The position numbers were made by a program, and so were the translations under genes. 64,000 nucleotides of DNA from a phage, in the NCBI GenBank assembly GCA_036930585.1, contig GCA_036930585.1_3066.1; one strand, written 5' to 3'. This document shows, piece after piece, positions 628-62,936 of this stretch; within the stretch, counting starts at the first letter, position 1, and each line of letters starts with the position of its first letter. Under the pieces are notes generated by a model. The model was not told the origin of the DNA and made no database searches. It saw nothing but the letters and a program-made list of their open reading frames with translations.

Positions 628-812
628 TATTCACCTTTAGAAATTTTATCCATAACAATAGCAATTAAACCAATTAAAAATGCTACTACAAGTGAAAACA
701 CATTTTCTGCTGTAGTCAATAATCCACATATAAATCCAACAAACATTGAAAAACTAAAAGCGGAAGCAGAAATTGCAATAGCAACATTTCGAATTAATTC
801 ACAACGTTTCAT
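627..812 (-). CDS. small hydrophobic protein, two predicted transmembrane helices (61 aa)
   Basis: ORF track; two hydrophobic stretches; RBS GAGGAGAATAAAATG; sits directly downstream of an early-promoter stem-loop. Confidence 0.5.
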   Translation of the reverse strand: MKRCELIRNVAIAISASAFSFSMFVGFICGLLTTAENVFSLVVAFLIGLIAIVMDKISKGE

Positions 813-870
813 TTTATTCTCCTCAGTAGTAGATAGGGTAATAGTATCACTACCCTATCTAAAAGTAAAC
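813..870 (-). promoter_or_regulatory. early-promoter stem-loop module (PeSL-like): GTTTAC -35, extended -10 TGATACTAT inside a 10-bp inverted repeat
   Basis: Plus-strand gtaaac at 865-870; inverted repeat agatagggta/taccctatct (831-860) with loop atagtatcac; orientation matches downstream minus-strand gene. Confidence 0.45.
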
Positions 871-1104
871 TTATTTTTTACGAAAAATTGATTTATTTTC
901 TGCTGCCCATTTTTCAATAACTGCAGCAGGACCAGTAACAACAATTTTATCACCGTAATCTTCTGCGGCGAGTTGACCGAAATTATCTAATGCATCACGA
1001 AGAACTCCATGAGGCATTTCACCCATTTTATCTTTCTTGCCAGTGTAAATAAACTCAACTTTTACATCAGCAGTTTCAGCAATAAATTCTTGGTAAGTTT
1101 TCAT
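871..1104 (-). CDS. internal-protein-like small protein with capsid-targeting-sequence-like N-terminus (MKTYQEFIAE); track ORF extends to 1116
   Basis: N-terminus MKTYQEFIAE matches the T4 internal-protein capsid targeting sequence as I recall it; ends in I-A-E, a gp21-protease-type site; located in the IP position next to 57B. Confidence 0.6.
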   Translation of the reverse strand: MKTYQEFIAETADVKVEFIYTGKKDKMGEMPHGVLRDALDNFGQLAAEDYGDKIVVTGPAAVIEKWAAENKSIFRKK

Positions 1105-1116
1105 TTTGATTTCCAT

Positions 1117-1180
1117 TTGGTTTTGTTTTGATAGGGTAATAGTATCACAACTAAAACCCTATGTAAACAACTTTGTGAAA
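1117..1180 (-). promoter_or_regulatory. early-promoter stem-loop module (PeSL-like)
   Basis: gtaaac at 1163-1168 (minus-strand GTTTAC), TGATACTAT -10 in loop of inverted repeat atagggt/accctat; near-identical 35-bp box tgtaaacaactttgtgaaattattttaaatcttct shared with 1491-1525. Confidence 0.45.
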
Positions 1181-1438
1181 TTATTTTAAATCTTCTAATC
1201 GTTTCTTCATCTTAGAACCATTTTTAGCAATTTCTCCTGCATCGGAGCATAATGCTAAAAGTGCTTTAACTTTAGTTTGGTCTCCTTTAAAAGATGAAGG
1301 ATCGACCGCAGCAGCAAGTTCTTTAATACGAGAGAAAAGACGCTCAGCTTCAGCTAAAGCCATTCCAAGCTTTACTTCCATACCGTGGGAAGATTCAGTG
1401 ATAGTAGTTTTTGTAGCAAACTCTTTGAAAGTTTTCAT
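1181..1438 (-). CDS. internal-protein-like small protein (85 aa) with CTS-like N-terminus MKTFKEFATK...ITE
   Basis: ORF track; N-terminal similarity to CTS pattern MKT(Y/F)(Q/K)EF; I-T-E candidate gp21 cleavage site; RBS AGGAAA upstream. Confidence 0.55.
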   Translation of the reverse strand: MKTFKEFATKTTITESSHGMEVKLGMALAEAERLFSRIKELAAAVDPSSFKGDQTKVKALLALCSDAGEIAKNGSKMKKRLEDLK

Positions 1439-1455
1439 TTTTATTTTCCTAATTA

Positions 1456-1511
1456 ATTTTGATGAGGTAATAGTATCACTACCTCATCAGTATGTAAACA
1501 ACTTTGTGAAA
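1456..1511 (-). promoter_or_regulatory. early-promoter stem-loop module (PeSL-like)
   Basis: gtaaac at 1494-1499; inverted repeat gatgaggt/acctcatc (1461-1488) enclosing GTGATACTATTACC. Confidence 0.45.
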
Positions 1512-2196
<685 letters not shown>

Positions 2197-5523: not shown

Positions 5524-7237
5524 TAACCTTAATTGGTTTGTTGGTGTTGTTGAAGATAGAATGGACCCATTAAAATTAGGTCGTGTTCGTGTTCGTGTGG
5601 TTGGTCTGCATCCACCTCAAAGAGCACAAGGCGATGTAATGGGTATTCCAACTGAAAAATTACCATGGATGTCAGTTATTCAACCTATAACTTCTGCAGC
5701 AATGTCTGGAATTGGAGGTTCTGTTACTGGACCGGTAGAAGGAACTAGAGTTTATGGTCATTTTTTAGACAAATGGAAAACTAACGGAATTGTCCTTGGC
5801 ACGTATGGTGGAATAGTTCGCGAAAAACCTAATAGACTTGAAGGATTTTCTGATCCGACTGGACAGTATCCTAGACGTCTAGGAAATGATACTAACGTAT
5901 TAAACCAAGGCGGAGAAGTAGGATATGATTCGTCTTCTAATATTATCCAAGATAGCAATCTAGACACTGCGATAAATCCTGATGATAGACCACTATCAGA
6001 GATTCCAACTGATGATAATCCAAATATGTCAATGGCTGAAATGCTTCGCCGTGATGAAGGATTAAGACTAAAAGTTTATTGGGATACCGAAGGATATCCG
6101 ACAATTGGTATTGGTCATCTTATCATGAAGCAGCCAGTTCGTGATATGGCTCAAATTAATAAAGTTTTATCAAAACAAGTTGGTCGTGAAATTACTGGAA
6201 ACCCAGGTTCTATTACAATGGAAGAGGCGACAGCTTTATTTGAGCGTGATTTGGCTGATATGCAACGTGACATTAAATCACATTCTAAAGTTGGCCCAGT
6301 CTGGCAAGCTGTCAACCGTTCTCGTCAAATGGCATTAGAAAATATGGCATTTCAGATGGGTGTTGGTGGTGTAGCTAAATTTAACACAATGTTAACTGCT
6401 ATGTTAGCCGGAGATTGGGAAAAGGCATATAAAGCTGGTCGTGATTCATTGTGGTATCAACAAACAAAAGGCCGTGCATCCCGTGTTACCATGATTATTC
6501 TTACGGGGAATTTGGAATCATACGGTGTTGAAGTAAAAACCCCAGCTAGGTCTCTATCAGCAATGACTGCTACTGTAGCTAAATCTTCTGACCCGGCTGA
6601 TCCTCCTATTCCAAATGACTCTAGAATTTTATTCAAAGAACCAGTTTCTTCATATAAAGGCGAATATCCTTATGTGCACACAATGGAAACTGAAAGTGGA
6701 CATATTCAGGAATTTGATGATACTCCTGGGCAAGAACGATACAGATTAGTTCATCCAACTGGAACTTATGAAGAAGTATCACCGTCAGGAAGAAGAACAA
6801 GAAAAACTGTCGATAATTTGTATGATATAACCAACGCTGATGGTAATTTTTTGGTAGCCGGTGATAAAAAGACTAACGTCGGTGGATCAGAAATTTATTA
6901 CAACATGGATAATCGTCTTCACCAAATAGATGGAAGCAATACAATATTTGTACGTGGCGATGAAACTAAGACAGTTGAAGGCAATGGAACTATCCTAGTT
7001 AAAGGTAATGTTACTATTGTAGTTGAAGGTAATGCTGACATTACAGTTAAAGGAGATGCTACCACTTTAGTTGAAGGAAATCAAACTAACACAGTAAATG
7101 GAAATCTTTCTTGGAAAGTTGCTGGGACAGTTGATTGGGACGTTGGTGGTGATTGGACAGAAAAAATGGCATCTATGAGTTCTATTTCATCTGGTCAATA
7201 CACAATTGATGGTAGCCGTGTGGATATTGGGTTATAA
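5507..7237 (+). CDS. 5: baseplate central spike / tail lysozyme gp5
   Basis: 576 aa; lysozyme domain DEGLRLKVYWDTEGYPTIGIGHL (T4-lysozyme-like E/D/T); C-terminal VxGxxxxx beta-helix repeats. Confidence 0.92.
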   Translation: MEMISNNLNWFVGVVEDRMDPLKLGRVRVRVVGLHPPQRAQGDVMGIPTEKLPWMSVIQPITSAAMSGIGGSVTGPVEGTRVYGHFLDKWKTNGIVLGTYGGIVREKPNRLEGFSDPTGQYPRRLGNDTNVLNQGGEVGYDSSSNIIQDSNLDTAINPDDRPLSEIPTDDNPNMSMAEMLRRDEGLRLKVYWDTEGYPTIGIGHLIMKQPVRDMAQINKVLSKQVGREITGNPGSITMEEATALFERDLADMQRDIKSHSKVGPVWQAVNRSRQMALENMAFQMGVGGVAKFNTMLTAMLAGDWEKAYKAGRDSLWYQQTKGRASRVTMIILTGNLESYGVEVKTPARSLSAMTATVAKSSDPADPPIPNDSRILFKEPVSSYKGEYPYVHTMETESGHIQEFDDTPGQERYRLVHPTGTYEEVSPSGRRTRKTVDNLYDITNADGNFLVAGDKKTNVGGSEIYYNMDNRLHQIDGSNTIFVRGDETKTVEGNGTILVKGNVTIVVEGNADITVKGDATTLVEGNQTNTVNGNLSWKVAGTVDWDVGGDWTEKMASMSSISSGQYTIDGSRVDIGL

Positions 7238-35726: not shown

Positions 35727-35751
35727 AAGGGACCTTTCGGTCCCTTTTTAT
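35727..35751. terminator. bidirectional terminator between convergent gene 24 and rnlB
   Basis: hairpin agggacctttcggtccct flanked by A-run and T-run. Confidence 0.6.
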
Positions 35752-36756
35752 TTAACTTACCAATTCAATCCAAGCCGGACGAAGTACATCTTGTACCATT
35801 TTAACTAATTCCTTTTTAATCAGAGAAGGATTATCCGCTTGAGTTAGAGTAATACCTTCACGAGAAGTTTCTTCCAAAATATCTTGAACAGTTAGTCCCA
35901 TCACCTTTCCAAAATCCTTCGGACCAATTTCGCCAATTTTAGAAATAACGTTATTTACTCGGTTCAGTGTAACGTAGCAAGCTAAAATTCCCAGCAATTT
36001 ATTATCAGCTTCTGACAGCTCAACTTTAGCTTTAATAGGCTTATCAGACTTTTTCTTTTCACTAAATTTAGAGTTCTTGCATTTAATCGCTACGCGATTG
36101 CCATTAGGCATCCAAGAAGGATAACAAGGTTTCAATACATAACCTTCAGCGGTAAATACTTCGCCTTTTGCTTCGGCATTCCAGACGTATTTATTTGCAT
36201 CAACTAATCCAGCATGGTCTACTGTAAAATTATAATCTTGAACGACAGAATCTAAATCATTCGGCAATTTAATAAGTTCTTCAAATTTACCACGACCCAA
36301 AAGTGGAGCCATTTTAAATTTAAATGTATTACAGAATGATTCCATCATATAATCATCGACATAAGTCACATCACCACTTTCGGTAGTAACAATAATGTCA
36401 AATACATAAAAATCTTTATCGCCATAATCGACATTCTTCTGAATGCCAGGTCCAGCGAATTCGCCAAAGACTTGATAAGATACAACCGCTGAGGTTTCCA
36501 TAATATCTTGTACTGCTTTAATAGAATCTTCGTAATTCTTTAGAATAATTTCATACCCAAAGAAATCTTCAGCAGGAAGAATCGGTCCAGTACGTTTAGC
36601 ACAAGTAGCTTTATCACGCTCAATAATCAGTGAGAAATTTGTGCCATGAATCTTTTCACGAGCTACCCATTCGCCGCAAGTCAATCCCAAGCTATAAAGT
36701 TTTTCAATAAATTTAGAGTTGTAATGATTTTCAAGACTGCTATACTTTTTAAACAT
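35752..36756 (-). CDS. rnlB: RNA ligase 2
   Basis: 334 aa; nucleotidyltransferase motif I EKIHGTN. Confidence 0.9.
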
Positions 36757-48508: not shown

Positions 48509-48540
48509 TGGGGACCTTTCGGTCCCCATATTTTTATTTA
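48509..48540. terminator. bidirectional terminator between gene 54 and the alt-side genes
   Basis: hairpin ggggacctttcggtcccc followed by atatttttattt. Confidence 0.6.
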
Positions 48541-48824
48541 CGGAATGAAATGAAAGCAGCAACTGAAGCAACTAAACTGTCTTCAATATAAACTTCAATT
48601 TTTACCGGAGCTTCTGACTCAAATTTACCTGTTACTACACCCTGAAAAATACTTTCAGTCTGTTCTGGCTTTGAAAAATTTTCAGAAGGAAAAATTCCAA
48701 ATTTTTTATCTGTTCCGAAAATTTTGATAAATTCATCATAAACTGCTTCATTAAAAGCGTTATCAGCAGGAATAACGCCTTCAACTACAAGTTCTTGACC
48801 TAAAAAGCGTAAAGAAGATTTCAT
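48534..48824 (-). CDS. hypothetical protein (96 aa), alt.-3 position
   Basis: ORF track; RBS GAGGAA; preceded by duplicated promoter element. Confidence 0.55.
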   Translation of the reverse strand: MKSSLRFLGQELVVEGVIPADNAFNEAVYDEFIKIFGTDKKFGIFPSENFSKPEQTESIFQGVVTGKFESEAPVKIEVYIEDSLVASVAAFISFRK

Positions 48825-48832
48825 TTTGTGTT

Positions 48833-48887
48833 CCTCATGTTATGTCAGTAAGACTACTATAACACAACACGAGGGACTTGTAAACTA
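48833..48887 (-). promoter_or_regulatory. early promoter within stem-loop; 53-bp element duplicated at 62881-62933
   Basis: minus strand GTTTAC (plus gtaaac 48881-48886), 17 nt, TATAGT; imperfect inverted repeat spanning the RBS. Confidence 0.5.
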
Positions 48888-49242
48888 CATTTTGAACTTT
48901 TTAGTACGCGTAATAGGCATGCGTCGATTTTATACTGTTTCATTGTTTGAAGAGCAGTATCAAAAACAGCATTAATGACACCAATTGGATTTCCACCCAA
49001 GTTTTTAAGCTTAACTAATGATAGTTTCTCATTAACACCTATCATTACGATATGCATCATTTTGTCGCCTGGTTTAACGTTTTATCTGTATCACCGCCAG
49101 AGGTGTATGTACAAAATCTAAATCCAGGAAGCACGCTTTCTTCGCCGGCTTGAATAGCAAAAATTTGTGGTATTTTATGCTTAGGATTTAAGTTAACAAC
49201 CGGCGCCGAAGCGCCGTCAAATAATTATGTAATAAGTTCCAT
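48857..49242 (-). pseudogene. decayed partial duplicate of the alt 5' region (alt.-1/alt.-2 position)
   Basis: MELIT then stop at 49242-49225 mirrors Alt MMELITELFD; in-frame 67-aa piece MMHIVMIGVNEKLSLVKLKNLGGNPIGVINAVFDTALQTMKQYKIDACLLRVLKS parallels Alt residues about 65-120. Confidence 0.6.
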
Positions 49243-49245
49243 GAT

Positions 49246-51297
49246 TTATCCTTGAACGAACTTGTAAGGCATGTTTGCAATATCTATGCAAGACGCAATA
49301 ATTCCAAGAGATGATTCTACTTTCTGTTTAACATTTGATGAAACAAATGATGCAAAGTCAACTCTGTCTTCTATATCACCTGTCATTGTAACCAATTCAC
49401 CAGTTTCCATTAAATGGTCTCCGTCATAGATTACCGATTCGGTGAGTTCTTCTGTGGTCATAACTTCAGCTTGAATAAGCTTGTTGTTAGTTCTAACTGT
49501 TCCATCGTTGTAAGATGCATCGGTTATTTTATTAACTTTGACCATTAATCCACGTGGCAAAATGACTTCCATTTCATTTGAAGGCGCTAAACTTCCACCG
49601 GGTAAAACAACATTAACCTTATCAGCCCCAGTAATAACCCATCCAATTCCAACTAAATTATCGCTAGAATTTACTAGTCCTTCATCAGTTTTATCAATAG
49701 AAACACTTAGACGCTTTTCGTCCGGTAAAACACCCACAGATGAATCAGTCATCCAAGTACCAAAAATATTTGGATATAATGGTGTTGACACAAAGTTTCT
49801 AAAATAAAAAACTCGATTTTTTACCATTGCTTCGTATATTGAAGGTAACATTCGTTGTGAACGATACAAAGTAATACCTTTTGGTAATCGTTCACCATTT
49901 TTAAAGGCTGAATCTAAATTATCAATGGCTTGTTCTATTTCAGGTGCTGTTAAAATACTTGTACGCTCATCTGGATTATATAATCCCAAAAGAGCATTAT
50001 TCATGTCTACATATCCTGAACCTACATATTCACGAATTCCGCGTTTTTGCGCTGGTGTGTATTTAGATGAATCTTTATTTTCGACTATAGGATGTAATGA
50101 CCATCCAGCGGTAAGAGCATATCCACGTAATTCTCTTCGAATAATCTTTGTTTTTATTGCATTCCAAGAATTTTGTACTAACTCATTCGCAGCATCTTGA
50201 TTTAAATGCGAATGCTTGTTAATGTTTCTTTCTAACCAAGCACCTTTATATTTTTCTAAAGTATCATCAACTATAGAAGCAATAGTTTCTAAAGTTTTTA
50301 TTGAAGTAATAGATTCTTTTCGTAATCTTTCTAAAGCTTTATTTTTTATTTCTGCATTAACATCAGATTCTTTATCTTCAGGAATTATAGAAGCTTCTCT
50401 GAATGCCATTCCAGCTGTAACACTGCTAAGAGCATTCTCTAGTGCAAATCCTGAAGTAGAAATAACAGTTAATTCATTAGCGTCAGAAATTAAAGGAGCG
50501 TCAGCGGGTTTATTTAATTCTGCTGCTGAAGCCTCAAATTTTTGAAACATCGGCGTTTCAAATCTAGAAGATTCCAATGATTGACTTTGCGCAATTGCTC
50601 TACGGGAAATTTTAACTTTAACGATTACGGCTTGGTCAGAACGTTTATCATTTTCTTGTGCAATTGATGCTGCAATTGCCTCATTTTTAGTTACTTGGGC
50701 TCCAGTATCTTTATTGATATAAACATCACCGACTTTCGATTCAACTTTAGTAAAGAGCTCGGTACTAATTTCCGGAACTCCTGGAATGTCTTCTAGTGAT
50801 ACATTTTTGCGATGTATAAGAATATATGCATACTTTTTATCATAATCCCAGAGTTCCTTAAGAAGGACGTATCTGCCACCTGAACGACTACGGATAAGTC
50901 TATCAGCAATAACTTGAATTTGTCGAGCTTGACCGGCGGTTTTAGACTTAAGAATACGAAGCATGCAGGCATCAATTTTATATTGACGCATTGTTTGCAT
51001 TGCAACAGTAAAAACTGAATTGATATAATTAATCGGGCTTGGACCAAGACCTTTTAATTTAGCAATTGAACCTTTAGCAGTTAATGTAAAAGGAACAATA
51101 TGCATCATTTTATCGCCCATCTTTAAATCACGATTAGTATCACCTCCAGATGTATAGGTACATAAACGAAAGCCTGGTTGTTCAATTGCATCATCAACAT
51201 GAACTGAAAAAATTTGTGGTATTTTCTTCTTTGGATTTAAGTTTGTAATCGGAAGAGTAGTATCTTCGTCAAATAATTCTGTAATTAGTTCCATCAT
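49246..51297 (-). CDS. alt: Alt ADP-ribosyltransferase (packaged, injected)
   Basis: 683 aa (T4 682), position between gene 54 and DNA ligase. Confidence 0.85.
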   Translation of the reverse strand: MMELITELFDEDTTLPITNLNPKKKIPQIFSVHVDDAIEQPGFRLCTYTSGGDTNRDLKMGDKMMHIVPFTLTAKGSIAKLKGLGPSPINYINSVFTVAMQTMRQYKIDACMLRILKSKTAGQARQIQVIADRLIRSRSGGRYVLLKELWDYDKKYAYILIHRKNVSLEDIPGVPEISTELFTKVESKVGDVYINKDTGAQVTKNEAIAASIAQENDKRSDQAVIVKVKISRRAIAQSQSLESSRFETPMFQKFEASAAELNKPADAPLISDANELTVISTSGFALENALSSVTAGMAFREASIIPEDKESDVNAEIKNKALERLRKESITSIKTLETIASIVDDTLEKYKGAWLERNINKHSHLNQDAANELVQNSWNAIKTKIIRRELRGYALTAGWSLHPIVENKDSSKYTPAQKRGIREYVGSGYVDMNNALLGLYNPDERTSILTAPEIEQAIDNLDSAFKNGERLPKGITLYRSQRMLPSIYEAMVKNRVFYFRNFVSTPLYPNIFGTWMTDSSVGVLPDEKRLSVSIDKTDEGLVNSSDNLVGIGWVITGADKVNVVLPGGSLAPSNEMEVILPRGLMVKVNKITDASYNDGTVRTNNKLIQAEVMTTEELTESVIYDGDHLMETGELVTMTGDIEDRVDFASFVSSNVKQKVESSLGIIASCIDIANMPYKFVQG

Positions 51298-55264: not shown

Positions 55265-55630
55265 TTAAATATCAAATTCGTTAAGAACTACATCAAAGAT
55301 TGCTTCAAGATGCTCAGGTTTAGCTCTGTTACTCAGAATATGACGAATCCAAGTTTTAACTAAGAGTTTACGATTAGCACCATTCCAGCAAGGATGAGTC
55401 CCTAAATCGCGTTGACGGAAATCATCATCCAGAGCGATTTTAAAGTTGGAACCTTCCATCGTGATTGAAACCGTGATACCGTTTTCAAATCGCATATAAA
55501 CGTAATTAGGAGTCATATACTGTTCAATTTCGCATACTGATCCATTTTGATGTTTCCAAAGGCAGATGGTATCAATAGAACCTGTAATACCATTAGAAAC
55601 ATATTTACGTTCAAAGTTAATGTAGTTCAT
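55265..55630 (-). CDS. hypothetical protein (30.7 position); track ORF starts at TTG 55642
   Basis: ATG at 55630 with RBS GGAGAATAAAATG. Confidence 0.55.
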   Translation of the reverse strand: MNYINFERKYVSNGITGSIDTICLWKHQNGSVCEIEQYMTPNYVYMRFENGITVSITMEGSNFKIALDDDFRQRDLGTHPCWNGANRKLLVKTWIRHILSNRAKPEHLEAIFDVVLNEFDI

Positions 55631-55642
55631 TTTATTCTCCAA

Positions 55643-55697
55643 GATGTTTAATTGCGGTACAGGTATATAATATCATGTCCTGTACCAAAGTAAACAA
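55643..55697 (-). promoter_or_regulatory. early-promoter stem-loop module (PeSL-like)
   Basis: minus GTTTAC (plus gtaaac 55690-55695), 17 nt, TATTAT inside inverted repeat gtacagg/cctgtac. Confidence 0.45.
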
Positions 55698-56030
55698 TTA
55701 TTTTACTACTTTCCAATACTGCATGTCAAGTTTACCGACTTTTTTCATCTTCTTAATTAAGCGTTCGGCACGTTGGCGAGCTGTAACATAATGCCATTCG
55801 CCTAATTCATTTTGTTCAATTTTTCCAACGATTACTGTATTCAATTCATAAATCCAACCAGTAAAGAAATTATGAACTTGAATTGTAAAGGTGAAATCTG
55901 TTCCCATACCTTCTGTTGTTTCTACTTCAATAATATCACCTTCAACTGCCATTAAGAACCACATAGTTTCATTATATTTACCGTTGAAGCATTTAGTTTT
56001 AACTGCAGCGTTCAGATTAATCGTTTTCAT
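55698..56030 (-). CDS. hypothetical protein (30.8 position)
   Basis: ORF track, 110 aa; RBS AAGGAGAATAAAATG. Confidence 0.55.
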   Translation of the reverse strand: MKTINLNAAVKTKCFNGKYNETMWFLMAVEGDIIEVETTEGMGTDFTFTIQVHNFFTGWIYELNTVIVGKIEQNELGEWHYVTARQRAERLIKKMKKVGKLDMQYWKVVK

Positions 56031-56040
56031 TTTATTCTCC

Positions 56041-56095
56041 TTTGTTTGTGTAAGATAATACTATCACAAAGGAACCGTACTGTAAACAACTTTGT
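56041..56095 (-). promoter_or_regulatory. early-promoter stem-loop module (PeSL-like), same family as 813-1511
   Basis: gtaaac 56083-56088; shares the box tgtaaacaactttgtg and the loop motif TACTATC with the IP-locus modules. Confidence 0.45.
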
Positions 56096-56104
56096 GCAAT
56101 CTTT

Positions 56105-56140
56105 GGAAAATAAAAAAGGACTCCCGAAGGAGTCCTCAAC
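56105..56140 (-). terminator. rho-independent terminator
   Basis: minus strand AGGACTCCTTCGGGAGTCCT followed by TTTTTATTTT. Confidence 0.65.
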
Positions 56141-56317
56141 TTATGCTTTCTGCTTACCAAAACGAGAAGCATCATCTCGAAGAACCGCACGTGCTCGGCG
56201 CATGATCTTCTCAACAGTTTGATTGATACGAGAGTTCGACCCACGCTTGTAGCCAGCGCGTTTAGAATCACCAACTTTCTTTTCAACTGCTTTCTTTGCT
56301 TTAGCTTGTTTTGCCAT
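56141..56317 (-). CDS. small basic protein (58 aa from MAKQAK; track ORF extends to 56359)
   Basis: Lys/Arg-rich MAKQAKAKKAVEKKVGDSKRAGYKRGSNSR...; start choice uncertain. Confidence 0.5.
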   Translation of the reverse strand: MAKQAKAKKAVEKKVGDSKRAGYKRGSNSRINQTVEKIMRRARAVLRDDASRFGKQKA

Positions 56318-56561
56318 TATAAATTCTCTTTTAAATGAAAATGCAGGACTTATTGGCATTGCCTGCGCAAGCCCTCAAGGGGAACATAGGTTTTGTATAT
56401 TTACCGACAGGATAACCATAAACCTCGTCATCATTCACATTCAAGAGGTACACCGTAAAACTGCCGGGGTCTTAAAACTATAATGATTCGCAAATCATTA
56501 ATCAGACAGTTCGACGGCTCCTCGATTTTAGCTCACACTAAGGCAGTGAATCTCCAATAAA

Positions 56562-56810
56562 TTACTTCAGTGTTACCACAAAGTGACGAACTGCTTTTCG
56601 TGCAGCAGAAGCCAGAGGCTTAGCATATTTAAGTTCATCTTTTTCCTGAAGCTCAGCAGCTAATGCAGTTTGAGCAGGATTCAGATGTTTGAAATAACGC
56701 AGGATTTCAAGAGCTTCGGCTTCAACATCAATAGATGCGCCATAGTTTTCGTGACCATTATTCCATGCGTTTCGTTGCAGTTCAAGAGCGTGTTGTAATT
56801 GTTTAATCAT
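56562..56810 (-). CDS. rIII: rIII lysis inhibition accessory protein
   Basis: 82 aa, MIKQLQHALELQRNAWNNGHENYGASIDVEAEALEIL; position before gene 31. Confidence 0.85.
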   Translation of the reverse strand: MIKQLQHALELQRNAWNNGHENYGASIDVEAEALEILRYFKHLNPAQTALAAELQEKDELKYAKPLASAARKAVRHFVVTLK

Positions 56811-56957
56811 TTAAAAATTCTCGTTAGAGATTAAAACTCGGTAGTCACGTTCTTCTGAATTTCATCTTCTTTCGACAGATCTCTCAGTTGTAGACTACCA
56901 CATAGAATTGTTCGGTTAACTTATTATTCCGACACCCAATTCATATTATTATTTATA

Positions 56958-57293
56958 TCACTTATAAAGACACGGAATAGCTTTATAGTGACAGGTAACG
57001 AATTTTTGTTTAATTTCTTTTGGCTGCTTAAGACCCAGAGCTACAAAAGGATGCGGAACATTTCGAATTTGACCAACTGGAAGAGAAGTCAAATCGCCAA
57101 CTTCGCAGAAACCTTCAGGAACATCAGGACCGACAGAGTGAACTACACACAGTTCAGGAACTTCACCTTGAACACGTTTACCGATAATAAGTCCTGATTC
57201 TGTAACTTCTTCATCACCGGCTTGTGCAGGTTCAGAAACTAAAATAACATATTCACCGACAGCACGAATTGGTAGCTGTTGTACTTCAGACAT
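56958..57293 (-). CDS. 31: gp31 co-chaperonin (GroES-like)
   Basis: 111 aa, [39 protein letters not shown]. Confidence 0.9.
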
Positions 57294-57324
57294 CGTTTTT
57301 TCCTTTTTGTTAACAGATGAATTA

Positions 57325-57349
57325 ATAATAACAAATAATTCTTAAAGCA
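57325..57349 (-). promoter_or_regulatory. candidate MotA-dependent middle promoter for gene 31
   Basis: minus aaaTGCTTTAag then 12 nt then TATTAT (plus taaagca 57343-57349, ataata 57325-57330). Confidence 0.45.
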
Positions 57350-57350
57350 T

Positions 57351-57659
57351 TTATTTACCAATAAATTGGAGCAAATGCTCAACTTTCATACCATTAACGG
57401 AAATCAATTTGTCAATAGAAAAACCTCGCCATGCACCAAGCTCAACATCAAATACCGGAATCATGTCAGTAGATTCTTTCCGAGTAGATTCAGTCAATTT
57501 GCCAGTTTGCATGGTTGGCATAAAGTCCGCGTCGCGAGTACCTTTCATAACACGAATAGTACCGTCAGACTTTTCAAAAACTACGTTTGAAACACCCATG
57601 GACAATTTAGTTTTCAAAATTTCACGAATTGCTACTTTTTGTTCAGTCGTCAGTTTCAT
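57351..57659 (-). CDS. hypothetical protein (102 aa)
   Basis: ORF track. Confidence 0.5.
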   Translation of the reverse strand: MKLTTEQKVAIREILKTKLSMGVSNVVFEKSDGTIRVMKGTRDADFMPTMQTGKLTESTRKESTDMIPVFDVELGAWRGFSIDKLISVNGMKVEHLLQFIGK

Positions 57660-57896
57660 TTATTTACCTATTACAGTTTTAATATGAGTTGTTCCACGTT
57701 CTTTAAGAGTGGAAAGTAATTTTTGGCATTTTTCTAAATCAGATTTCCAACTATATGGTCTATCAATACAAACCCATTCTGACTTATAATACTGCTTCCA
57801 TTTAGAGAAAAAATATTTCTTATACTCTACAGCAAATGAAATATTCTCATTAGAATAAGAACTAATTGCTGTGAGCTGTACCAAACGAAATTTCAT
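57660..57896 (-). CDS. hypothetical protein (78 aa)
   Basis: ORF track; start overlaps cd stop. Confidence 0.5.
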   Translation of the reverse strand: MKFRLVQLTAISSYSNENISFAVEYKKYFFSKWKQYYKSEWVCIDRPYSWKSDLEKCQKLLSTLKERGTTHIKTVIGK

Positions 57897-58477
57897 TATT
57901 CACCACAGAATTCGTTGATATTTTCCCAGTTTAACTTATTCAAGTTTTTCTTAGGAACATTAAACACTTCAATACCTGCATTTCGCAGAATATCATCCCA
58001 GCCAGGTTTATTTTTATCGTATGTTTCGCAATAAACCAGTTTTTTAATTCCAGACTGAGCTATCGCTTTTGCGCAATCCGGACAAGGAGAAAGTGTTACA
58101 TACATAGTAGCACCTTCAATTGAAGAACCATTTCGTGCAGCAAACAAAATCGCATTTAGTTCAGCATGAATTTCATTTTTAGATGACCATTCCGAGTGAG
58201 CACTACGATGTTCTTTCGCCAAGACAAAGCGATCAGTTGAACCAAATGATACACATTCAGGCTTATGACCTTGAATGATAGTATGTTTAGGCTTATTCAG
58301 CAACCAACCTTGCTCAGCAGCATAATCACAGCAGTTCACACCACCTGCAGGTGAACCATTATATCCAGTAGAAATAATACGTCCATTCTTTTCAATTACT
58401 GCTCCTACTTTCCAGGAGCAACATTTTGATTCTTGTGATACTAAATATGCAATTTGAAGTACTGTACTCGCTTTCAT
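57896..58477 (-). CDS. cd: dCMP deaminase
   Basis: 193 aa; zinc-binding deaminase motifs HAELNAI and PCPDCA. Confidence 0.92.
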   Translation of the reverse strand: MKASTVLQIAYLVSQESKCCSWKVGAVIEKNGRIISTGYNGSPAGGVNCCDYAAEQGWLLNKPKHTIIQGHKPECVSFGSTDRFVLAKEHRSAHSEWSSKNEIHAELNAILFAARNGSSIEGATMYVTLSPCPDCAKAIAQSGIKKLVYCETYDKNKPGWDDILRNAGIEVFNVPKKNLNKLNWENINEFCGE

Positions 58478-58812
58478 TTCATAATCACCAGATAAGCAGA
58501 TTTAGCAGTTTCAACACGATAAATTTCGTGACGAAGTTTAGTTATACTTTTAATAACAGAACTAATTATATTCTGCCCATCTTTAAAGCGGTTTTTCTTA
58601 TCAATAAAAATTGCGCCAACCATCTTTTTGTGAAGCTCAACCGGATACTTCGTCACAATAATAGCATCATACACAGAAGGATGAATACTATTCACCAGAG
58701 TATCATTCATTAAAGTTATTCTAATGAACTTTGCTGTTTCAGAGTCAAGCGCTCTATGATCGCCAGTATCATTTTTAATACAATTATCAATTATATCAGT
58801 TAAATTCATCAT
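58474..58812 (-). CDS. hypothetical protein (cd.1 position)
   Basis: ORF track, 112 aa. Confidence 0.5.
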   Translation of the reverse strand: MMNLTDIIDNCIKNDTGDHRALDSETAKFIRITLMNDTLVNSIHPSVYDAIIVTKYPVELHKKMVGAIFIDKKNRFKDGQNIISSVIKSITKLRHEIYRVETAKSAYLVIMK

Positions 58813-59048
58813 AGTACGCCATACACCCTTTGTGCTTCAACTAATCCATCAAAATCCAATTTGAGATGTGTTATTTGGTCACCATCACCTGGATTCACAA
58901 TTACTAATACTGAACGAGGAGTTTCGGTAATAACACGAACCGATGTTTCGGGAAATCGTTCAGAAACCTTATTTACTAATTCCTGCGCAAATAGTTTAAC
59001 TTTTTCTTCTTGGAATTCTTTAACAGTAATTGGTTTTTCACTTAGCAT
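58809..59048 (-). CDS. hypothetical protein (cd.2 position)
   Basis: ORF track, 79 aa. Confidence 0.5.
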   Translation of the reverse strand: MLSEKPITVKEFQEEKVKLFAQELVNKVSERFPETSVRVITETPRSVLVIVNPGDGDQITHLKLDFDGLVEAQRVYGVL

Positions 59049-59569
59049 GTTGATCCCAGCTCCTTACTTTCAACGTTTTTAACTAATTTGACAGAAACTA
59101 ATTCAGCATCTTGGGTAATCATTACCGGGCCTTCTTCATACTCTTCAAGATATTCTAGAGCTTTCTTTTTAGCTTCTTCCTTTGTATCAGTTTGAGCATA
59201 GATATAAAACATGCAACCAGTAATACCTACTACTTTCCACTTAATTTCTTTATCAGTTTTAATTTCAAATTTACTGACAGAATCATCTTTTTGAACTTCT
59301 TCGAAAAAAGAATATTCTAACATATAAGCAATTGAAAATAACGGGCTAACTTTATAGGATTCACCCATTACATCAACAGCTTTATACCAACAATCATCAA
59401 TTTCGCGTTTAATGCTAATAACATTCTTTGCAGGGTCAATTTTTACTTTAAATGAATTTTCCCCAATAAACTGGGCGATTCGTTTATTAGCCCCGCAAGT
59501 TTCATTAAAAATATCTTTATACCCAGTTTTAAAGCGATAAACCTTATCTTCTTCAAACCATTCGCTCAT
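59042..59569 (-). CDS. hypothetical protein (cd.3 position)
   Basis: ORF track, 175 aa; RBS GAGGAA. Confidence 0.55.
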   Translation of the reverse strand: MSEWFEEDKVYRFKTGYKDIFNETCGANKRIAQFIGENSFKVKIDPAKNVISIKREIDDCWYKAVDVMGESYKVSPLFSIAYMLEYSFFEEVQKDDSVSKFEIKTDKEIKWKVVGITGCMFYIYAQTDTKEEAKKKALEYLEEYEEGPVMITQDAELVSVKLVKNVESKELGSTC

Positions 59570-59574
59570 TTCAA

Positions 59575-59631
59575 TTTCCTCATTTGTTTTGGTAGAGCTA
59601 TAATATCACAACTCTACCGTAAAGTAAACCA
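59575..59631 (-). promoter_or_regulatory. early-promoter stem-loop module (PeSL-like)
   Basis: gtaaac 59624-59629; inverted repeat ggtagag/ctctacc enclosing TGATATTAT. Confidence 0.45.
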
Positions 59632-62377: not shown

Positions 62378-62874
62378 AAAGTTTTAATAACCTCTATAAT
62401 ATCGTCTTGAGAAAGACCGTTAATTAAAATATGATGTTCAGCCGGAGATTTAGAAATTTTAAAGCACGCCGCAACATCTTCTGCCATATCCGATGCGCTA
62501 CGATTTGGATTACTAATTCCAAGACGATGCTTTCCTGTCAAAGGATTAACGATGATATAGCATTTGCAGCTATTGATATGAACATTAGGTTGAGTCTGAT
62601 TAATAAACACTTCACAATCATACTTAGCGAGTTGATTTTCTAAAAAGACTTTCATCTCCTCAACCGCATCAGGAAGCATATCACGGGCTTGCTCAAGACG
62701 ACGATTTCGATATTCTTTAATGGTTGTTTTCCGCTTTACTTGCTTAGCTAAATCTTTCTTAAGATCGGTGATATATCCAACTCGACGATTTCCTTTGAAT
62801 ACAGAAATCCCATCTGTAGTATCACCGTATGCTTCAACGACCATTTCAGTAGTAATGAGCTGCAAATCCATCAT
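62368..62874 (-). CDS. alc: Alc, inhibitor of host transcription; track ORF starts 4 codons upstream at 62886
   Basis: Position immediately downstream of rnlA as in T4; about 167-168 aa from MMDLQLITTEMVVEAYGDTTDG with GAGGGA RBS. Confidence 0.7.
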   Translation of the reverse strand: MMDLQLITTEMVVEAYGDTTDGISVFKGNRRVGYITDLKKDLAKQVKRKTTIKEYRNRRLEQARDMLPDAVEEMKVFLENQLAKYDCEVFINQTQPNVHINSCKCYIIVNPLTGKHRLGISNPNRSASDMAEDVAACFKISKSPAEHHILINGLSQDDIIEVIKTLCM

Positions 62875-62880
62875 AAAGTC

Positions 62881-62933
62881 CCTCATGTTATGTCAGTAAG
62901 ACTACTATAACACAACACGAGGGACTTGTAAAC
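62881..62933 (-). promoter_or_regulatory. early promoter within stem-loop; second copy of the 53-bp element at 48833-48885
   Basis: identical run cctcatgttatgtcagtaagactactataacacaacacgagggacttgtaaac in both places. Confidence 0.5.
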
Positions 62934-62936
62934 AAC

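Follow-up and report, generated by a model that had tools for sequence, protein, structure and literature searches.

Early promoter modules in the 30.x, cd.x and internal-protein regions

The 64-kb stretch of phage DNA analysed here (the window; GenBank assembly GCA_036930585.1, contig GCA_036930585.1_3066.1) comes from a Tequatrovirus with 97-99% identity to many T4-like coliphages: a 5-kb query around the focal region matched 970 phage records, of which more than 500 were Tequatrovirus genomes at 95-99% identity, with Pinarejo, MLP2 and fPS-65 as the best matches. Our subject is a composite module of early promoter and stem-loop, three copies of which (modules 55695, 56087 and 59629) lie among small genes of the 30.x and cd.x regions, and which belongs to a set of eight early-promoter sites in the window, the others being 870, 1168, 1499, 48885 and 62933 (Table 1). 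Comparison with the annotated T4 record placed the genes and modules of the focal region all on the minus strand. The genes that flank the focal modules (30.7, 30.8, ORF175 and cd.3) encode proteins of 61-175 amino acids (aa) of unknown function, and are as small and uncharacterised as the first-pass annotation had described them; ORF175 has no Pfam match. The start of the window is the 57B/internal-protein (IP) locus. All three focal promoters occupy sites that exist in T4 itself, where the named early promoter Pe133295 stands at the position of module 59629, between cd.3 and cd.2.

The focal modules share one layout on the minus strand. An A/T-rich UP region comes first, followed by the -35 box GTTTAC, a 16- or 17-nt spacer, TGn and the -10, after which a CA-rich, unstructured leader precedes the Shine-Dalgarno sequence (SD) and ATG of a small accessory gene. 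An inverted repeat is superimposed on these parts, with one arm in the spacer and the other directly after the -10. This is the design, GTTTAC with an extended -10 in a hairpin loop, that had been reported at 55643-55697, 56041-56095 and 59575-59631, and it was recovered in all three, the hairpin of module 56087 being the weakest (z = -1.26). Modules 55695 and 59629 share design and promoter consensus with the others and differ from them in stem sequence. The stem of module 55695 is kept in the T4, Mosigvirus and Dhakavirus orthologues, and the stem on the cd.3 side covaries, reading GGTAGAG/CTCTACC in Tequatrovirus, GGTAGGAC/GTCCTACC in Dhakavirus and GTAGAGTT/AACTCTAC in Mosigvirus.

Both the promoters and their stems recur far more often than chance would allow. 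The pattern GTTTAC-N15-TGnTAnnnT occurred seven times in the window against 0.07 expected, each time on the minus strand, the coding strand of the early genes, and the eighth promoter has a spacer of 16 nt. A perfect stem of 7-11 bp surrounds the -10 in seven of these eight promoters, compared with a mean of 0.25 and a maximum of 2 when the spacer and downstream bases were shuffled (2000 shuffles). In T4, an enclosing stem of at least 7 bp was present in 10 of 30 canonical early-region promoters (0.67 expected; none of 1000 shuffles as high), and the hairpin belongs to a subset of the early promoters of T4, between about a third and a half of them. Those T4 (AF158101) early promoters that have no hairpin often possess another conserved downstream block, tatacaactatcaactactgatacgga. 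In IMG/VR, the pattern GTTTAC...TAnnAT...GGAGAATAAAATG retrieved 95 distinct modules, mostly from T4-like genomes of ~170 kb, with stems of 7-12 bp, many of them unrelated in sequence (TTGGTACAGGT, TAGATAGGGTA, TGGTGTAAGAT, TGATGAGGTA, AGGGCTAT and ACAGCCAT). A search with gp30.8 gave nine IMG/VR loci, and the breadth of the comparison came from the degenerate DNA patterns and the GenBank phage collection. Column-wise covariation was unsuitable for paralogous modules, in which the hairpin centres are shifted by up to ~2.5 nt and the pairs fall out of register; the stems were tested by shuffles and orthologue comparison instead.

When the eight modules were aligned they formed a family with a mean column identity of 62%, in which GTTTAC, TG and TA..T were the invariant columns. 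A box of module 56041-56095 had also been noted in the IP locus, and this 16-mer, TGTAAACAACTTTGTG, is indeed exact at 1162, 1493 and 56081 (0.10 expected); the top direct-repeat family of the window (D1) comprises 828-898, 1126-1196, 1457-1527 and 56045-56115. What the modules have in common is mostly the UP/-35/TGn/-10 consensus of all T4 early promoters, the stems being different.

The second shared unit, an identical ribosome-binding site (RBS) and start at three cassette genes, was likewise present as described: the 13-mer GGAGAATAAAATG is exact at 810-822, 55628-55640 and 56028-56040, with 0.23 expected. RegB, with S1, cleaves at an 11-nt site, GGAGRAYARAA, whose optimum is GGAGAAUAAAA and which is intergenic in early transcripts (Durand et al. 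2006, PMC1702504). All three boxes consist of GGAGAAUAAAA followed by TG, and they are the sole matches to the RegB consensus in the window. A combined SD and RegB site at a fixed spacing from the start codon thus accounts for the identity of the 13-mer; with the box being the RegB/S1 optimum, its sequence is attributable to function and does not speak for a portable RBS, an explanation that we set aside. The same box recurs behind ~95 differing promoter and hairpin sequences in other phages, as functional constraint predicts. In the predicted folds of modules 55695 and 870 the RegB site is unpaired, whilst in that of module 56087 the GGA is paired in read-through RNA and would be free in the promoter's own transcript. 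Like the mapped RegB/S1 sites of that study, the boxes sit at the SD of early genes, and cleavage here is predicted from sequence. As both SD and optimal RegB/S1 site, GGAGAAUAAAA would have the early mRNAs inactivated within minutes.

Modules of this kind, at these promoter sites, are known elements, and their design has already been published as the promoter-early stem-loop (PeSL). In Arbiol et al. (2010, PMC2839356), PeSLs of RB49 and phi1 are defined by an AT-rich region, an early promoter, a stem-loop and an SD with ATG, the stem-loop being mostly between -35 and -10 or overlapping the -10; recombination between PeSLs is proposed there as the source of cassette insertions and deletions (indels), and mini-circles were found by polymerase chain reaction (PCR). 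Comeau et al. (2014, PMC4122927) extended PeSLs to PST/T4 and nt-1/KVP40, with the PST/T4 consensus TTTACW-N17-TAYWAT; in a legend on PST the stem-loops, of consensus AGNA-loop-TCNT, directly precede the promoter. We consider it highly probable that the three focal and five further modules are T4-type immediate-early promoters arranged as composite cassettes of the PeSL kind, which combine a hairpin acting at the RNA level with patches of homology and, in three of them, a RegB site.

Table 1 Features of the focal region and the further early-promoter modules of the window (fold, kcal/mol and z; arms given as 5' then 3').
Feature	Position	Strand	Promoter elements	Stem arms	Start signals	Fold	Description
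Gene 30.7	55265-55630	-					121 aa, PF06919; downstream of module 55695
Module 55695	55628-55697	-	-35 GTTTAC 55690-55695; TG and -10 TATTAT 55667-55675, -10 in loop	GGTACAGG 55679-55686; CCTGTACC 55656-55663	SD/RegB box and ATG GGAGAATAAAATG 55628-55640 (30.7 start)	-16.3; z = -3.15	Early promoter/stem-loop, upstream of 30.7
Gene 30.8	55698-56030	-					110 aa, PF06019; cassette gene between two modules
Module 56087	56028-56096	-	UP/-35 box CACAAAGTTGTTTACA 56081-56096; -35 56082-56087; -10 TAGTAT 56058-56063	TCCTTTGT (anti-SD) 56066-56073; ACAAAGGA 56038-56045, overlapping SD	Box GGAGAATAAAATG 56028-56040 (30.8 start)	-12.6; z = -1.26	Early promoter, upstream of 30.8
Terminator after 30.9	56116-56137	-		GAGGACTCC-ttcg-GGAGTCCTT then TTTTATTTT			Canonical intrinsic terminator, directly upstream of 30.8 promoter; same element in T4
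Genes 30.9, rIII, 31, 31.1, 31.2, cd, cd.1	Between 30.8 and cd.2	-
Gene cd.2	58809-59048	-
ORF175	59042-59569	-					175 aa, phrog_3710, unknown function
Module 59629	59567-59631	-	-35 59624-59629; -10 TATTAT 59600-59605	GGTAGAG 59612-59618; CTCTACC 59591-59597	SD gaggaaa 59575-59581; ATG 59567-59569	-16.3; z = -3.72	Early promoter/stem-loop, downstream of cd.3
Gene cd.3	From 59632	-
Module 870 (IP locus)	810-870	-	-35 865-870; -10 TACTAT 841-846	TAGATAGGGTA 851-861; TACCCTATCTA 830-840	Box GGAGAATAAAATG 810-822	-19.8; z = -3.43	Upstream of 61-aa membrane ORF (T4 trna.4 position)
Module 1168 (IP locus)	1114-1177	-	-35 1163-1168; -10 1139-1144	ATAGGGT 1156-1162; ACCCTAT 1131-1137		z = -4.14	Upstream of internal-protein-like gene (MKTYQEF...)
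Module 1499 (IP locus)	1436-1508	-	-35 1494-1499; -10 1470-1475	TGATGAGGTA 1480-1489; TACCTCATCA 1460-1469		z = -4.14	Upstream of second internal-protein-like gene (MKTFKEF...); identical module upstream of T4 ipI
Module 48885	48822-48888	-				-23; z = -4.65	Copy of alc promoter/hairpin; upstream of 96-aa ORF 48534-48824 after alt
Module 62933	62868-62936	-		AAGTCCCTC 62919-62927, pairs with SD region GAGGGACTT 62876-62884		-31.6; z = -7.9	Early promoter of alc inside long hairpin

Beyond the focal region, the modules of the alc promoter and of the open-reading frame (ORF) after alt are 97% identical copies 14 kb apart (48830-48888 and 62878-62936), each with a hairpin that buries the SD. The IP locus (871-1520, minus strand) holds two internal-protein-like genes (MKTFKEF..., 85 aa; MKTYQEF..., ~77 aa) where T4 has the single ipI, and an identical block of ~37 nt, agaagatttaaaataatttcacaaagttgtttacata, extends from the last codons (..EDLK-stop) of both 57B and the first IP gene into the next promoter; it has the look of a joint left by recombination, with coding sequence inside it. 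Close to module 48885, the first ~160 nt of alt (start 51297; 51137-51297) are repeated at 49088-49245 with 72-90% identity, just past the alt stop, and a 67-aa ORF at 48857-49060 resembles the N-terminal part of Alt; the repeat looks like a truncated alt paralogue or the remnant of a duplication. A terminator-like hairpin, GGGACC-tttc-GGTCCC with a T-run, is found at both 35729-35775 and 48511-48557 on the plus strand, 12.8 kb apart (repeat family D8).

The role of the embedded hairpin

The embedded hairpins are of two classes. In the tight class (870, 1168, 1499, 55695 and 59629) the loop is essentially the extended -10, whilst in the anti-SD class (56087, TCCTTTGT/ACAAAGGA; 62933, AAGTCCCTC/GAGGGACTT; and 48885) the spacer arm pairs with the SD of the downstream gene. 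None of the -10-enclosing hairpins has a U-tract, their 3' flanks being A/C-rich, and none was returned by a terminator scan of the minus strand between 54.5 and 64 kb. That scan returned 56137-56116, the only terminator-like site adjoining a module in this interval, and, within the 30.9 ORF, a second hit at 56179-56163 that is weaker, with 5 bp; Rfam gave zero matches at gathering score across the window. As canonical intrinsic terminators the module hairpins were rejected, for want of a U-tract.

The mismatches within imperfect stems bear on the level at which the hairpins act. In a set of 206 distinct T4-like early promoters, the one mismatch of singly mismatched stems, read on the sense strand, was G·T or T·G 31 times and A·C or C·A 4 times, and a stricter count (at least three pairs on each side, relatives collapsed) gave 13 of the G·T type to 1 of the A·C type. 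Because transitions would be expected to turn a perfect stem into either type equally often, and a cruciform would be harmed by both, the bias indicates that selection acts on the sense strand, RNA being the simplest case. If G·U pairs are counted, the hairpins lengthen to 12-14 bp (z = -3 to -8), and in the tight class the loop is then a tetraloop, AUAC or AUAU.

The embedded hairpin and the upstream terminator are mutually exclusive features: an intrinsic terminator lies upstream of 1 of 44 hairpin promoters and of 24 of the 87 others (131 promoter clusters, p = 2.7e-4, the clusters coming from related phages and being imperfectly independent). The same holds in T4 alone, at 1 of 15 hairpin promoters and 7 of 15 others (p = 0.035).

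A strong sigma-70 promoter of this type is used by the host RNA polymerase right after infection, and transcription is predicted to begin ~7 nt past the -10, within the 3' arm. Given a start there, the promoter's own mRNA would be without the hairpin and freely translated, and both arms would be present only in RNA from promoters further upstream, where the hairpin could serve as a boundary element at the RNA level. In the tight class it would take the place of the intrinsic terminator, probably acting by attenuation or by protection of the 3' end of the upstream mRNA, and in the anti-SD class it would mask the SD, so that read-through RNA would be neither translated nor cut by RegB. The best reading of the hairpin is therefore an RNA boundary element for read-through transcripts, possibly by way of attenuation, 3'-end protection or, in the anti-SD form, SD masking. 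The proposal in full is that the hairpin is an RNA element of read-through transcripts and neither a terminator nor a DNA recombination signal, that, through attenuation or 3'-end protection, it replaces the terminator where gene junctions are tightly packed, and that its anti-SD form gates translation and RegB cleavage according to the promoter used. This proposal draws on the sense-strand G·U bias together with the exclusivity with terminators, and we advance the whole tentatively, as a possibility that falls a little short of even.

A stricter form of the PeSL claim makes the hairpins true terminators, which stop upstream polymerase and leave each cassette transcriptionally isolated. The exclusivity with upstream intrinsic terminators and the selection of mismatches on the sense strand would both suit such a role, and in Arbiol et al. 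(2010, PMC2839356) an RB49 PeSL stem-loop cut lacZ expression as strongly as rrnB T1. However, that stem was G/C-rich and the A/T-rich stems here are weaker, every one of them lacks a U-tract and is followed by an A/C-rich flank, and T4 delayed-early expression relies on early transcripts extending through such regions (Hinton 2010, PMC2988021). We therefore regard true termination as unlikely, although some weight must be left to it, and prefer the RNA boundary element.

Probable gene exchange at the modules

Synteny with other T4-like genomes showed that the flanked genes are not fixed in all relatives, though they seldom vary in the closest ones. The order 30.9-30.8-30.7 is intact in 474 records, roughly all the close Tequatrovirus relatives, and the cassettes are thus of limited mobility over short times. 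Modules are found at orthologous positions in Tequatro-, Mosig- and Dhakavirus. Mosigvirus ChristianSchoenbein carries a 30.8-like gene between two modules, whereas Mosigvirus AV116 is without 30.8 and has a single chimeric module, the 5' part of which (GTTTACtctcctgtaggatgtgttactatagacttgtacca) is that of the upstream module and the 3' part (acaaacaacttaaacatc) that of the downstream module; the two parts meet at a crossover within the 3' arm of the stem. In Tequatrovirus ESh17 the 30.8 allele is only 38% identical in protein, yet it lies between modules nearly identical to those of the window (~97% flanks), and ChristianSchoenbein also has a 38%-identical allele. In Dhakavirus-type genomes the modules either side of 30.8 share an identical 3' half of ~38 nt, so that the cassette is bracketed by direct repeats. 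Shigella phage SP21535 has lost 1.78 kb between a point in module 56087 (window 56045) and one in 30.3 (window 54261); at this locus (2860-2900 in SP21535) a truncated 30.3 frame has come under the control of the 30.8 early promoter.

The junction of cd.3 and cd.2 varies too. Compared with T4, from which it is absent, ORF175 is inserted exactly between the SD of module 59629 (gaggaaa) and the ATG of cd.2; it is present in 303 records, whilst ~540 close relatives match the region. Dhakavirus MX01 has a 31%-identical homologue in the same slot, and ChristianSchoenbein has no ORF175 there and an aldolase gene where T4 has cd.1. In phage PaulHMueller the ORF175 match is in two pieces beside a putative homing endonuclease. 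In the Dhakavirus-like IMG/VR genome 2974741249 (~5740-5765), the cd.3-side module directly follows what is left of another early promoter, a -10 with its leader (aaggatactatagacctatcaactt, then GTTTAC), which suggests tandem or fused modules after loss of an intervening gene.

Consensus parts that recur every few hundred bases between small, non-essential genes would serve as patches of homology for T4 recombination, and recombination at such patches would give cassette loss, gain and allele replacement. The first-pass annotation had taken the repeated promoter and RBS units as the footprint of modular gene shuffling. This is partly supported, and is essentially the published PeSL model apart from the RBS: exchange is borne out by AV116, ESh17, SP21535 and the ORF175 indel, whereas the portable RBS gives way to the RegB optimum.

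Much of what the modules share could also have arisen by pure functional convergence, in which they are fixed regulatory sites with common promoter and SD/RegB needs and no part in gene exchange. The invariant columns of the alignment coincide exactly with the promoter elements and the RBS box with the RegB optimum, 30.9-30.8-30.7 is intact throughout the 474 records and the modules are orthologous across three genera, all of which such convergence would lead one to expect. It does not account for the single chimeric module of AV116 exactly where 30.8 is missing, nor for the diverged ESh17 allele between almost unchanged flanks, and in a few cases indel or replacement junctions already lie inside modules. 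Identical blocks also exceed the functional elements: in the IP locus ~37 nt of identity run on into the ends of coding sequences, and a 59-nt block is 97% identical in copies 14 kb apart. Mini-circles were detected by PCR in Arbiol et al. (2010, PMC2839356). Convergence with no exchange at all is in our judgement improbable.

A DNA-level structure, whether a cruciform or hairpin with a single-stranded -10 as in phage N4 or an endonuclease VII-type target that makes a recombination hot spot, would fit the precise position of the -10 in the loop, the AV116 crossover in the 3' arm, and the RB49 crossovers in or beside the stem-loop, for which a stem-binding recombination protein is speculated upon in Arbiol et al. 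(2010, PMC2839356), but a cruciform needs both strands paired and the mismatches are nearly all sense-strand G·T (31 vs. 4), G·U pairs add 4-6 bp in RNA only, the repeat is missing from about half of the T4 early promoters, which are no less canonical, and nothing at the DNA level would explain why hairpins and terminators exclude each other, so that we give this explanation very little credence. The cruciform or N4-like hairpin promoter in particular was judged unlikely from the strand asymmetry of the mismatches.

Several observations weigh against the account favoured here, composite PeSL-like promoters with an RNA boundary hairpin. About half of T4 early promoters have no hairpin, which is therefore dispensable for promoter function, and module 56087 combines a weak fold (-12.6 kcal/mol) with a real terminator already upstream. 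That transcription starts within the 3' arm, and that read-through RNA is affected at all, are both steps that we infer, and true termination by the module hairpins is doubtful given their modest stability and lack of a U-tract; the imperfect independence of the promoter clusters counts here as well. As to exchange, the SP21535 deletion (30.8 through part of 30.3) occurred at an 8-nt microhomology and ends in a coding region, and the ORF175 indel is bordered by a module at just one of its ends. Not all of the variation here is module-to-module recombination.

Relation to known systems and significance

The likeness to PeSLs extends to the order of parts and to the setting, among the small ORFs of hyperplastic regions; all eight modules conform to the PST/T4 consensus TTTACW-N17-TAYWAT, the stem-loop is between -35 and -10 or overlaps the -10, as it mostly does in RB49 and phi1, and there are indels and replacements between close relatives. 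The stems here, however, are A/T-rich and without a U-tract, and a terminator role for them would be a prediction. The geometry in the PST legend suits terminators such as 56116-56137 and not the -10-enclosing hairpins, whilst the accessible text of the PeSL papers mentions neither an anti-SD subclass nor a G·U bias of the sense strand, nor that hairpins and terminators exclude each other.

Analogous elements were recognised at T-even IP loci, in the form of T4 early promoters whose AT-rich stems are weaker (Repoila 1994, cited by Arbiol et al. 2010, PMC2839356); in that description they separate interchangeable IP genes. The 57B-IP-IP-trna.4 region of the window (~800-1520) is this very locus, and module 56087 shares its 16-mer, but the focal modules are in the 30.x and cd.x regions. 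T4 early promoters have been described as UP/-35/TGn/-10 'uber' promoters with extra consensus regions, in which an inverted repeat is not described (Hinton 2010, PMC2988021). The modules have all of these recognition elements at orthologous sites, including Pe133295, and differ in their inverted repeat, which is found on only about a third to a half of such promoters.

In the T4 genes e, soc, 49 and I-TevI, the transcript from upstream folds and the SD is sequestered, while the transcript from an internal promoter is without the 5' arm and is translated. The geometry of the anti-SD modules 56087, 62933 and 48885 matches this arrangement. The T4 cases, however, have late or middle promoters that switch late genes on, whereas here the promoter is early and the switch is a prediction.

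As a re-identification of the linkers that the Krisch laboratory proposed for accessory-gene exchange in T4-type phages, the analysis adds little that is new. It is useful for annotation, placing eight early promoters, three RegB sites and one terminator in the genome, and it marks the slots (30.8, the cd.3-cd.2 junction and the IP locus) that are likeliest to vary in host-adaptation genes among therapeutic T4-like phages; for phage engineering, these are junctions that tolerate cassette replacement. The G·U bias and the exclusivity with terminators could settle the function of the stem-loop, which the accessible text of the PeSL papers leaves untested in T-even phages. If the proposed role of the hairpin is true, it would represent a general and previously unquantified layer of promoter-specific post-transcriptional gating across the early regions of T4-like phages.

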